Source: an uncultured Bacilli bacterium (lineage in GTDB: Bacteria > Bacillota_I > Bacilli_A > RF39 > UBA660). Taken from it: a DNA stretch of 64,000 nucleotides. The position numbers and the translations under genes were made by a program. Numbering within the stretch: position 1 is the stretch's first letter; every line of letters begins with the position of its first letter. Of the stretch, positions 47,463 through 49,404 are shown piece by piece. A model generated the notes under the pieces. It saw only the letters and a list, made by a program, of their open reading frames with translations. It was not told where the DNA came from and did not search any database. Location of the stretch: assembly GCA_947588685.1 (NCBI GenBank), contig CANPYM010000001.1, positions 479 through 64,478 of the forward strand. Direction: 5' to 3'.

Positions 47463-47648
47463 TTATACATACCCCCTTTGTTGGAGCATGCTTATAGAAA
47501 AAGGAAGTTTGCTAAATAGCTCCCTCCCTTCGCAAAAATTTCGTATGTATGTATGTATGTATGTATGTATGTATGTATGTATGTATGTATGTATGTATGT
47601 ATGTAAGATTTTCTCATCATTTTTCAATTTTTTCAATACTTTTTTCAT
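47463..47648 (-). CDS. leader ORF (61 aa) translated through the tetranucleotide repeat; stop abuts the ATG of cassette 1
   Basis: ATG at 47648 lies 4 nt after a GAGGTGA SD. The product is MKKVLKKLKNDEKIL(HTYI)n...RGYV. The TAA at 47465-47463 is immediately followed by the cassette-1 ATG (TAAATG). Confidence 0.45.
   Translation of the reverse strand: MKKVLKKLKNDEKILHTYIHTYIHTYIHTYIHTYIRNFCEGRELFSKLPFSISMLQQRGYV
47543..47605 (-). repeat. perfect tetranucleotide microsatellite (GTAT)15.75 on plus, (ATAC)n on the coding strand
   Basis: 63 nt with no interruption, counted directly from the sequence. The flanks break the period on both sides. Confidence 0.98.
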
Positions 47649-47658
47649 TATTTCACCT

Positions 47659-49404
47659 CTATTTTTCATCATCCCACTCACCGACATCTTCAAACAAATC
47701 TATTTCCGGGAATATATTGTTGCCATTATGATCTATCAATTGAACTGTTCCTTTATCTTTATCTTTCAAAATATACGCTGGAACTAATTCATCATTAATA
47801 CATAGCATTCCAATAAAATTAGCATATCCATCAGTTAAAGCCATCATATATTGTGATCTCGTTTCACTACCTGACAAGCTATCACTCTTTAAAGCTAAAT
47901 CAGTAACTACAAACTCAACTGTAATTTCACTATCTTCTGGCAATTCTATATCTAATTTTCCATCAAAAACAAATGAATTTCCTTCTGTAGAACACGAAAC
48001 ATTTTTATAATCGCTATATTCACCACCATTTAACTTATAATGGTATTTCATACTTAATACATTGTTTTTAATGCCAAAATTGTCATTCCAAAAGGATCCA
48101 CTACATTTTAAATTAACCTCTTTAGATGTTGCTTCTGTTCTTTCTACAATTACAGTAGTTATAACAGGTACTTTATAACTCAAATATTTATAATCACTAT
48201 CGTCGTTAATTGACAATTTTTTAGTTTGAACTTCTGTACATGCCCCTCTTGTATCCCTCAAAAGAAATCCAAAATTGACTATATCCTCATTTATAGAATT
48301 ATATAATTTGTTATCAGCCTTTTCAATTAATCGTACATTATTAAGTTCATATAGATATTCATAAACTTGTGCATCATCAAATAAATTAACATTATAAAAA
48401 GAAGCCTTTATTTGGGAGACATTTCTTATAAAAACATCAGCAGAACCAGTTAATTCTTTTGATAGATTATCAGCTACTTCTAATTTTGAATCAAAAGTTA
48501 TAGATGATTTTGTCCTAGAACAATACCAATCATAAGTTTTAGAATCAGTACCTAAAAGTGTACCGTTCGCATCATAAGTAGATAACTTATAAGTTATTGG
48601 TATTTTACCTTGAATATCTTTTGAAATGTCATAAAACTCAATTTCTTTGGATAACATCTCTTCAAGAGTTAATGGAAAGTCTAAATTAACATATTCACTT
48701 ATACTAGGTTTCGTTTTATCAAAAACAACATTAATTCCTTTGTTAATAGAAAAATTATCAGCTATTATTCCACTTAATAATTTTCCAGATTTATCAGAAA
48801 AAGAATACTCTAATTTATGTTTAAAGGTCGTTGTTGCACACGTTATTTCTAAAGTTTCATACGATGGATAAGCATTGTTAGATATATTGACTAAATTTCC
48901 ACTATTAATCACACTAGCTCGAGGAATCTTAGTTAAAGCCGTATTAGAGGTTTGAACAGTAGCTGACTCCGGAACATATGAGGCACTTGTATTTTTGGTC
49001 CACATTACCTTTGCATAGCCACTTAAAGTTCCGTCATCTTTATGGATTACAGTAACTTCTTTAGTTAAAGAAGAAGATGCCCCAGTATTTAAGCTTTTAA
49101 CTGTCTTTGTTCCTAAAAGTTTGTCGCTATTGGTATTATCATCATGCCAATAGATTTTTAGCGTTGGAGCATACGTTGAATAAGACCCTGTTCCGGATTT
49201 TATCGTTCCTGTTACACTAATTGTAGATGTATTATTTGGAATTGATGTACTCTTTTCATTAAAAGAAACTGATAAATTGAAAGTTCCCAAACCTCTAATG
49301 GTTTTGCTTGCTGAATTAGATGCAGCCATTAAAACATAACCATCTATTTTAGATAATCTCTCAGCATTGATAAAACTTGTTTTTATATTATTCAAGAGTA
49401 TCAT
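47659..49404 (-). CDS. tail fibre/receptor-binding structural protein (581 aa)
   Basis: Beta-rich and S/T/N-rich, in the position of distal tail genes. The N-terminal third resembles DUF859-type phage structural proteins (HxDDG-like loop: IHKDDGTLSG). The start may be the TTG at 49395 (GGAGGA 9 nt upstream). Confidence 0.65.
   Translation of the reverse strand: MILLNNIKTSFINAERLSKIDGYVLMAASNSASKTIRGLGTFNLSVSFNEKSTSIPNNTSTISVTGTIKSGTGSYSTYAPTLKIYWHDDNTNSDKLLGTKTVKSLNTGASSSLTKEVTVIHKDDGTLSGYAKVMWTKNTSASYVPESATVQTSNTALTKIPRASVINSGNLVNISNNAYPSYETLEITCATTTFKHKLEYSFSDKSGKLLSGIIADNFSINKGINVVFDKTKPSISEYVNLDFPLTLEEMLSKEIEFYDISKDIQGKIPITYKLSTYDANGTLLGTDSKTYDWYCSRTKSSITFDSKLEVADNLSKELTGSADVFIRNVSQIKASFYNVNLFDDAQVYEYLYELNNVRLIEKADNKLYNSINEDIVNFGFLLRDTRGACTEVQTKKLSINDDSDYKYLSYKVPVITTVIVERTEATSKEVNLKCSGSFWNDNFGIKNNVLSMKYHYKLNGGEYSDYKNVSCSTEGNSFVFDGKLDIELPEDSEITVEFVVTDLALKSDSLSGSETRSQYMMALTDGYANFIGMLCINDELVPAYILKDKDKGTVQLIDHNGNNIFPEIDLFEDVGEWDDEK

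Follow-up and report, generated by a model that had tools for sequence, protein, structure and literature searches.

A tetranucleotide tract in a leader reading frame as a possible three-state translational switch for the tail-tip genes of a temperate phage

The repeat tract, its leader and the neighbouring tail genes

The window analysed here is a stretch of 64,000 nucleotides (nt) from an uncultured Bacilli bacterium (contig CANPYM010000001.1, assembly GCA_947588685.1), and its right part is a prophage of a rabbit-gut Firmicute. Within this prophage, a perfect tetranucleotide tract lies in a short leader open reading frame (ORF), placed between the gene for a headless 581-aa DUF859-type tail protein and two small tail-tip genes, referred to as cassettes 1 and 2 (Table 1). 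All genes of this part of the window are on the minus strand. Tandem Repeats Finder (TRF) gives the tract a period of 4, 15.8 copies, 100% matches and a score of 126, and in our own scan it was the sole simple sequence repeat (SSR) of at least 14 nt with a period of at least 2 in the 64-kb window; the cassette ORFs themselves hold no SSR. The leader begins with the ATG at 47648-47646 and ends with the TAA at 47465-47463, which directly abuts the cassette-1 ATG (47462-47460). A preliminary description of the window had reported the perfect 63-nt (GTAT)15.75 tract, the 61-codon ORF around it with a strong Shine-Dalgarno (SD) sequence, and the contact between stop and start in the present repeat phase, and each of these features was recovered, the SD being GAGGTGA. 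The presence and anatomy of the tract are confirmed, and it is very probably the hypermutable element of the locus.

The leader peptide has no match in Pfam or PHROG. The 29-nt block around its start (47641-47669) is an exact duplicate of 62514-62542 (minus strand ATGAAAAATAGAGGTGAAATAATGAAAAA), where the same junction of stop, SD, ATG and AAAAA forms the start region of a gene of about 103 aa (MKNYIKNPDV...) downstream of the head gene. This suggests that the initiation region of the leader was copied from, or to, another cistron junction of the same phage and, because it is an exact copy of that of another phage gene, that the leader start site is competent.

In two further metagenome assemblies of the same phage, ERZ27059666 (contigs L002 and L001) and ERZ27249407 (L007), unique flanking sequence leads into the same tract and the contigs break within it. 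It therefore cannot be put down to an artefact of one assembly, a doubt that the preliminary description had itself raised. Since a perfect tandem tract of 63 nt is hard for short-read assemblers, the count of 15.75 units and the present phase are only as reliable as the assembly. Six contigs from five samples (L004, L005, L006, L016, L002 and L007) end or start inside these tetranucleotide tracts; short-read and k=31 assemblies of this phage group systematically cut through the host-range module. At position 61 of contig L017 (ERZ27249407; window position 47460), the start of cassette 1 reads ATT, not ATG (TAAATTATT), at about 2.3x coverage and possibly in error; if real, cassette 1 there would depend wholly on reinitiation at a non-canonical start.

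Table 1. Features of the locus and of the surrounding prophage, in window coordinates
Feature	Position	Strand	Remarks
Tetranucleotide tract	47543..47605	-	Perfect (GTAT)15.75 on the plus strand, (ACAU)n / (UACA)n in the mRNA; 63 nt
Leader ORF	47463..47648	-	61 codons + TAA; MKKVLKKLKNDEKIL(HTYI)n...QQRGYV; contains the tract
Leader SD, GAGGTGA	47653..47659	-	5-6 nt before the ATG; overlaps the TAG of the 581-aa gene
581-aa tail protein ("stem")	47659..49404	-	DUF859-type, phrog_372; without C-terminal head domain
Cassette 1	47067..47462	-	131 aa; N-terminal adaptor motif and C-terminal Gp53-like_C tail-fibre tip domain
Cassette 2	46545..47063	-	172 aa; same N-terminal adaptor motif, different, putatively all-beta head; TTG start, no SD
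Hairpin H1	47499..47531	-	Predicted fold; purine block GAAGGGAGG pairs with pyrimidine block CUUCCUUUU; small inner hairpin
Hairpin H2	47467..47491	-	Predicted fold; arms GCAUGCUCC / GGGGUAUGU; encloses the cassette-1 SD
Promoter-like TTGATA-17-TATATT	47711..47739	-	63 nt upstream of the leader ATG; equivalent site in sister phage L003; status uncertain
Promoter-like pair sites	47711-47739, 47608-47636	-	In L003: 6660-6688, 6780-6808
Strong terminator	44885-44910		Followed by host genes including pyrimidine-nucleoside phosphorylase and BrkB
Major head protein	62969-63787		Prophage, with further virion structural proteins, a 2758-aa giant tail protein, and 350- and 581-aa tail proteins
Lysis genes of the prophage			XhlA-like protein, holin, GH25 endolysin

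The sequence evidence for cassette 1 as a detachable tail-tip head is good, and the same role is plausible for cassette 2. The two share an N-terminal motif of about 25-30 aa and differ in their C-terminal domains. Cassette 1 matches the Pfam family Gp53-like_C ("tail fiber protein, C-terminal") at 26.9 bits, against a gathering cut-off of 24.9, and its PHROG match is a tail fibre. An exhaustive HMMER search returned 687 relatives, and in 140 of the best 150 the tip domain lies no more than 5 aa from the C-terminus; these proteins reach 2058 aa in length, and 77 exceed 300 aa. In P0193 (806 aa), a DUF859 protein carries the cassette-1 tip domain fused at its C-terminus, making it the fused counterpart of the split pair in the window. 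The bit score, the C-terminal position in relatives and this fusion bear out the earlier view of the cassettes as fibre-tip genes. Cassette 2 is 50% identical to r163 of the sister phage L003 described below, and it matches BclA_C below the cut-off. Its TTG lies 3 nt after the cassette-1 stop and, as had also been noted, it has no SD of its own, so that it is presumably translated by coupling to cassette 1. AlphaFold models were too poor to be of much use (pLDDT, the model's own confidence score, of 47 for cassette 2 and 37 for cassette 1); the low-confidence all-beta model of cassette 2 has C1q/TNF-like folds as its top matches, which only hint at a jelly roll of that type. Searches of PDB sequences with the cassettes and the tail protein gave no match.

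All of the roughly 25 differences between the window and contig L001 cluster in a patch of about 100 nt within cassette 2 (46853-46954, aa ~37-70); identity with the window is complete over the remaining ~840 nt of L001 and over a 2.6-kb contig of the same sample. Because the substitutions involve all base types, the patch is best read as local mosaicism or recombination, and not as mutagenesis of the kind made by diversity-generating retroelements (DGRs).

Relatives of the 581-aa stem carry PF05895. Two of them (L010 and L012) have tail proteins of 676-723 aa, which run past the stop of the window's gene into a fused C-terminal head (Gp10_C, E=3e-18 in L012). In both, the lysis genes follow directly after the tail gene, with no small ORF, no cassettes and no SSR. 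A 97%-identical variant of the stem, P0001 (563 versus 581 aa), was found by comparison of 48395-48428 with L007. It has an in-frame deletion in the tail gene, and the alignment blocks overlap by about 15 nt, which suggests that the deletion arose between short direct repeats.

Repeat variation in a sister phage

A sister phage is represented by contig L003 (ERZ27249433) and by L009 from the NCBI metagenome-assembled genome (MAG) GCA_947589735.1. Its tail gene is 81% identical to that of the window in DNA and 78% in protein. At the same position L003 has a homologous 57-aa ORF with an identical start region, AGAGGTGAAATAATGAAAAA, including SD and ATG. At the codon position where the window leader has (ACAT)n, the sister leader has a different tetranucleotide, (AACG)n. 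After the tract, both lineages continue with the same GAAGGGAGGGAGCTWTTTA block and then a pyrimidine block, GAAGGGAGGGAGCTWTTTA being a conserved island between otherwise unalignable leaders.

The number of units in the sister tract is not constant. L003 and L009 have no mismatch over 9,731 bp and differ by a single 28-nt indel, which is the difference between 5.75 and 12.75 units. In a third assembly, ERZ27249236, the 2,010 bases upstream of the tract are identical and the tract has 6.75 units; a 91%-identical variant, L018, has 5.75. Three Logan assemblies built with k=31 halt after exactly 30 nt of the (AACG)n tract, which means that each has at least 7.75 units. The observed alleles fall in different reading phases, and the sister tract is hypermutable and phase-changing. 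The preliminary description had proposed comparing unit numbers in homologous prophages, and the answer is that they are not invariant: the sister leader occurs with 5.75, 6.75, 12.75 and at least 7.75 units, with no mismatch in the flanks. Since two independent units, both frame-shifting and stop-free, occupy one site, it can be argued that mutability has been selected. When the predicted leader peptides for 5.75 to 12.75 units were looked up by exact match, only the 5.75-unit form had ever been called as a gene, a route that depends on the gene callers used. The related phages come from uncultured Bacilli/Erysipelotrichales-like MAGs of the rabbit gut.

Homology between the window and L003 breaks off within the leader and is taken up again at the holin. 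The cassettes, which lie in this interval, are homologues that have diverged (38% and 50% identity). The sister phage has a third cassette (r144). In the window, the sequence TTTAAAAGCGTAATTAATGAATAAAGAAATAA is kept after cassette 2 (46457-46544) and matches the junction before r144, with only a 4-codon stub following, so a third tip cassette appears to have been lost from the window lineage. Between L003 and L018 (L003 6000-7851), divergence is about 10-12% at the 3' end of the tail gene and in the pre-tract leader, about 1% in the post-tract leader and cassette 1, and rises to 24-33% in cassette 2; a boundary between recombination blocks falls at the tract. Purifying selection specific to the leader was considered from the divergence among L003, L018 and L016 and was rejected, as cassette 1 is equally conserved.

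Reading phases, predicted hairpins and the proposed switch

When units were added to or removed from the tract in simulation, the leader stop fell 0, 29 or 49 nt before the cassette-1 ATG, with a period of three in unit number. Loss of one unit (n-1) places it at 47494-47492, 29 nt upstream, and gain of one (n+1, the early stop) at 47514-47512, 49 nt upstream. This reproduces exactly the frame arithmetic of the preliminary description, and its statement that no frame through the repeat contains a stop agrees with our own check of the minus strand. In L003 the three phases stop at -10, 13 and 69 nt relative to the start of the next gene, one of them ending 10 nt inside it. All three frames are open from the tract to the first downstream hairpin, H1, in both lineages, which would occur by chance with probabilities of about 0.09 and 0.03 (jointly about 0.003, the lineages not being fully independent).

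Two hairpins are predicted after the tract. H1 has a predicted energy of -11.7 kcal/mol in the window and -16.7 in L003, and H2 of -11.0 and -12.1. The leaders of the two lineages, folded separately, each form H1 and an adjacent H2 (z = -2.6 and -2.8; 3 of 200 shuffles as good). The arms of H2 differ in L003 (UUAUAUCUCCU/AGGAGGUAUAA), and an SD-like run of G is enclosed in both lineages. In the window this is the cassette-1 SD, AAGGGGG (47472-47478), paired within H2. All three phases translate into the 5' arm of H1, and the early stop falls within the H1 loop in both the window and L003. Relative to H2, the window stops lie 21 nt upstream, immediately 5' and beyond, and those of L003 about 20 nt upstream, beyond and beyond. 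A crude accessibility model puts the probability of an unpaired SD at 0.36 for free mRNA; with a ribosome on the early, middle or abutting stop it becomes 0.39, 0.73 or 1.0, respectively. Neither hairpin was called as a terminator in a scan of the two lineages; H2 is without a U-run, and the 3' side of H1 is U-rich. Rfam gave only spurious miRNA matches, on the repeat itself. Both lineages have promoter-like hexamer pairs at equivalent sites, one situated 63-70 nt upstream of the leader ATG and the other ending 2-3 nt short of the tract; the TTGATA-17-TATATT block is also conserved as coding sequence.

We infer that the leader is translated and that its phase governs unmasking of the SD and coupling to cassette 1, with docking of the heads and a change of host range as consequences. 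Units of 4 nt would be gained or lost by slipped-strand mispairing as the prophage or the lytic genome is replicated, shifting the frame of a short and efficiently initiated leader ORF. The leader frame would in turn set where ribosomes stop relative to H2, which hides the ribosome-binding site of cassette 1. In the n+1 phase the ribosome would stop in the H1 loop, 21 nt before H2, which would stay closed, and cassette 1 would be poorly translated, as would cassette 2, which has no SD and depends on coupling. In the n-1 phase it would stop immediately 5' of H2, and on terminating would melt the 5' arm. In the present phase the leader would be read through H2 to end on UAA-AUG, allowing direct termination and reinitiation. 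Such a switch would be heritable, rapidly reversible and probably graded, with one OFF phase and two that are ON or partly ON. The preliminary description had contrasted the present unit number with one more or one fewer; its phase-specific stops hold, but H2 makes a graded response more likely than the simple toggle it proposed. The outcome would decide whether virions carry detachable receptor-binding heads, which would dock through their shared N-terminal adaptor onto the headless 581-aa stem.

That the tract is a phage-borne contingency locus whose leader phase gates expression of the tail tip has, in our estimate, a probability of about 0.6. At the level of sequence it has the features of such loci: a perfect tract, a unit that is not a multiple of three, a position inside an ORF and, through the sister tract, polymorphism. 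As expected of translational coupling, stop and start abut in the window (UAA-AUG), and the SD is held in a hairpin in the window but not in L003. The fuller picture, in which a temperate phage uses a leader tetranucleotide as a three-state, heritable and reversible translational switch that arms its virions, the first of its kind and with its motif turned over between ACAT and AACG in sister phages, is possible and is held more tentatively.

Several observations weigh against this interpretation. The SD of the first cassette in L003, AAGGUGA, lies outside H2, 21 nt beyond the retained GGTATAAAT motif, and is about half accessible in free mRNA. Because the true SD of L003 is outside H2, masking is not conserved in detail, and gating in the sister phage may be weaker than in the window. 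Only two independent leader types could be compared for covariation in H1 and H2, and they gave a single compensatory pair, which is minimal support. Length variation has been seen for the sister tract, the other assemblies of the window phage breaking inside (ACAT)n, and unit counts from short reads may be wrong for the longest tracts. A stop-free tetranucleotide unit is not unusual, its chance by composition being 0.63 for each. The promoter-like matches occur at chance density for AT-rich DNA (44 found against 41 expected, and 4 against 4.0). Finally, the low divergence of the post-tract leader among AACG-type phages reflects a mosaic block, since cassette 1 shares it.

The main competing explanation keeps the leader switch but moves it to transcription, with H1 or H2 as an intrinsic attenuator and the phase setting the level of cassette mRNA, as in the pil1 operon of Streptococcus gallolyticus, the precedent for such a mechanism (PMC3894217). 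H1 would then be an interrupted stem followed by UUUUUCU/UUUUCUU, and leader ribosomes reaching the hairpin would prevent termination. The conservation of the H1 sequence in both lineages, its stability and U-rich 3' side, and the promoter-like site conserved upstream of the leader ATG are consistent with this. However, H1 cannot discriminate between phases, since all three translate into its 5' arm, and termination here would cut off the lysis genes unless these had a promoter of their own. Because H1 is entered in all phases, H2 lacks a U-run and no terminator is called, translational control is favoured and attenuation is unlikely. An idea that the leader and cassette 1 form one fused protein was also tried and discarded: the two share a frame in the window alone, three assemblies contain the TAA, and the frame relation differs in L003.

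It is quite unlikely that the tract is a functionless microsatellite, drifting neutrally by slippage in a non-essential spacer between tail genes, with a fortuitous small ORF around it. Length variation alone is no proof of function, the four complete alleles have no significant phase bias, and late genes of a phage are not under selection in the prophage state. Chance would nevertheless have had to place two different units at the same codon position of homologous ORFs with an identical strong SD, in a setting where comparable SSRs are otherwise absent from the ~64-kb window, ~100 kb of relatives and 15 IMG/VR loci, and to leave conserved hairpins after the tract and three frames open to H1 in both lineages, at the joint probability and with the partial dependence given above. 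Very unlikely, too, is a tract that serves mainly as a recombination junction for the exchange of tip cassettes, or that lies in the initially transcribed region of an internal promoter and tunes expression by its length, not its frame. A junction would fit the step in divergence between L003 and L018, which differ by about 10% ahead of the tract and by about 1% behind it, as well as the interruption of window-L003 homology between leader and holin, but tracts of different units in the two lineages cannot recombine with each other. In favour of the length variant, promoter-like hexamers stop 2-3 nt short of the tract in each lineage; their density is that expected by chance, and any transcript begun within the tract would be without the start of the leader, and its H2 would stay closed. 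Least probable of all is a switch acting on the peptide itself, whose three C-terminal isoforms of 42-65 aa (...EGRELFSK..., ...KGGSYL..., ...RREGAI) would include one functional form, for example an assembly or lysis-timing factor. Both lineages have EGRELF.K, KGGS.L and RREGA in corresponding frames. All three stretches, however, come from one conserved 19-nt block read in three frames and are no evidence at the protein level; the N-terminal peptides differ between lineages, and Pfam and PHROG are silent on the peptide.

Distribution, known systems and meaning

The leader and its SSR are found only in lineages with separate head genes, and are absent from four lineages with a fused head or no separate cassettes. 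No comparable SSR occurs at any of 15 IMG/VR loci that share the tip domain, of which about eight have it as a stand-alone gene of 134-147 aa. No match to a 5.6-kb query was found among GenBank phages by blastn in distant mode, and in IMG/VR nothing related came up for the tail protein, for cassette 1, for the alignment of cassette 2 or for the leader motif. A JGI metagenome scan with the cassette-2 alignment had no match, and one with the 19-nt leader motif had nine, all attributable to chance and in unrelated contexts (GC content 29-58%). A homology search with both leaders concatenated in three phases was swamped by low-complexity repeat proteins. Small ORFs after the DUF859 genes of the distant L028 and L030 were considered as leaders and turned out to be XhlA-like lysis proteins. 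Elsewhere in the prophage, at ~62601-62990 on the minus strand, a run of about 130 codons is free of stops but has no start codon (...KPAQKTVTINLPEGEVLGID...TLSPSE*); the gene for the major head protein, read in a different frame, overlaps it with its 3' end. The run resembles the C-terminal (Ig-like) extension of a capsid protein made by programmed frameshifting, of a kind known from other phages.

SSR contingency loci are classic in bacteria. Those of Haemophilus influenzae and Neisseria (lic1-3, lgtC, mod) are long, perfect tetranucleotide tracts near the 5' end of an ORF, whose length changes by strand slippage and which have three translational phases. They lie in the ORF of the regulated protein itself or in a promoter spacer, on the bacterial chromosome, whereas the tract described here is in a distinct leader whose stop position would control the downstream cistron, on a phage replicon. 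As in the G segment and Gin of Mu, the C segment and Cin of P1, and the DGR of BPP-1, the tail tip would be diversified stochastically, with alternative tips on a constant N-terminal part, but the mechanism here would be repeat slippage. No convincing inverted repeats flank 46545-47462, no long direct repeat, such as a template/variable (TR/VR) pair, involves the cassettes, and the variation in cassette 2 is not adenine-specific. Neither an invertase or other recombinase nor a reverse transcriptase was noticed in the phage part of the window, though no search was aimed at them and the rest of the prophage lies outside the window.

The closest parallel is with the pil1 and pil3 pili of S. gallolyticus, in which 13-22 copies of GCAGA in a leader-peptide ORF have been shown experimentally to set the stop relative to a stem-loop (Danne et al., 2014, PLoS Pathog, PMC3894217). 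A leader stop 39-49 nt upstream of the pil1 hairpin gives low expression, and one at or in the hairpin gives high expression; the hairpin is a proven intrinsic terminator with a 6-T run, in a chromosomal pilus operon with a mapped promoter (PMC3894217). In both systems the SSR lies wholly in a short ORF with its own ribosome-binding site and ATG, upstream of the regulated genes, and its unit is not divisible by 3. In both, one phase stops well upstream of a stem-loop and the others adjacent to it, within it or beyond, the host is a Gram-positive Firmicute, and the repeat number varies, between isolates for pil1 and between assemblies for the sister (AACG)n tract. The differences are that the units are the tetranucleotides ACAT and AACG instead of a pentanucleotide, without sequence homology, that the element is inside the late tail operon of a phage, and that H2 has no U-run and holds the SD in the window, making translational control with reinitiation at the stop/start junction more likely. 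The locus thus works like pil1 on the reading preferred here, but is not classed with it, because the terminator feature is missing and there is no homology.

Phase variation of phage receptor-binding proteins (RBPs) is known only from the hypermutable polyG tracts that Campylobacter Fletchervirus phages have in their RBP genes (Sorensen et al., 2021, Cell Rep 35:109214, as described in PMC12633550 and cited in PMC12823448). As is proposed here, a phage SSR creates subpopulations that differ in RBP expression and hedge bets on host range. In those phages, which are lytic myoviruses infecting a Gram-negative host, the tract is homopolymeric G inside the RBP coding sequence, and a frameshift truncates the protein. 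The phage of the window is temperate, its long tetranucleotide occupies a leader ORF apart from the RBP genes, and the frames of these genes stay intact. In T2, T4 and other coliphages, slippage at short homopolymers of at least 6 nt inside ORFs has been described as bet-hedging (Gomez, Barrick & Waters, 2025, preprint, PMC12633550), and polymerase slippage at SSRs of a phage genome in such a role would be shared with the present case. The same preprint finds SSRs depleted in tail-fibre genes and makes no mention of tetranucleotide tracts or of a leader-ORF architecture. Our literature search found no phage SSR in a leader ORF and no tetranucleotide tract controlling a tail module, an absence that is no proof. 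The preliminary description knew of no phage fibre module gated in this way: the exact architecture was indeed not met with in the literature, but the principle is known from pil1 and from the polyG tracts of Campylobacter phages. The novelty is in the combination and context, not in the principle.

For metagenomics, tracts of this kind break short-read assemblies right at the host-range module, as in the six contigs noted above, and consensus assemblies conceal the phase heterogeneity within a population. If the proposed switch is real, no contingency switch in a leader ORF would have been described before it in a phage, nor one based on a tetranucleotide for a phage host-range module. It would also offer a compact and portable cis element of about 190 nt for engineering stochastic expression. 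The turnover between ACAT and AACG at one codon position would be direct evidence for mutability as a selected trait in a virus, and the biology of contingency loci, so far one of bacterial surface genes and of polyG tracts within the RBP genes of Campylobacter phages, would come to include leader peptides in temperate phages whose hosts are Gram-positive gut bacteria. From one lysogen or plaque lineage, sub-lineages with or without particular receptor-binding heads would keep arising, a hedge against phase-variable or diverse surfaces of gut hosts with no need for a recombinase or a reverse transcriptase.

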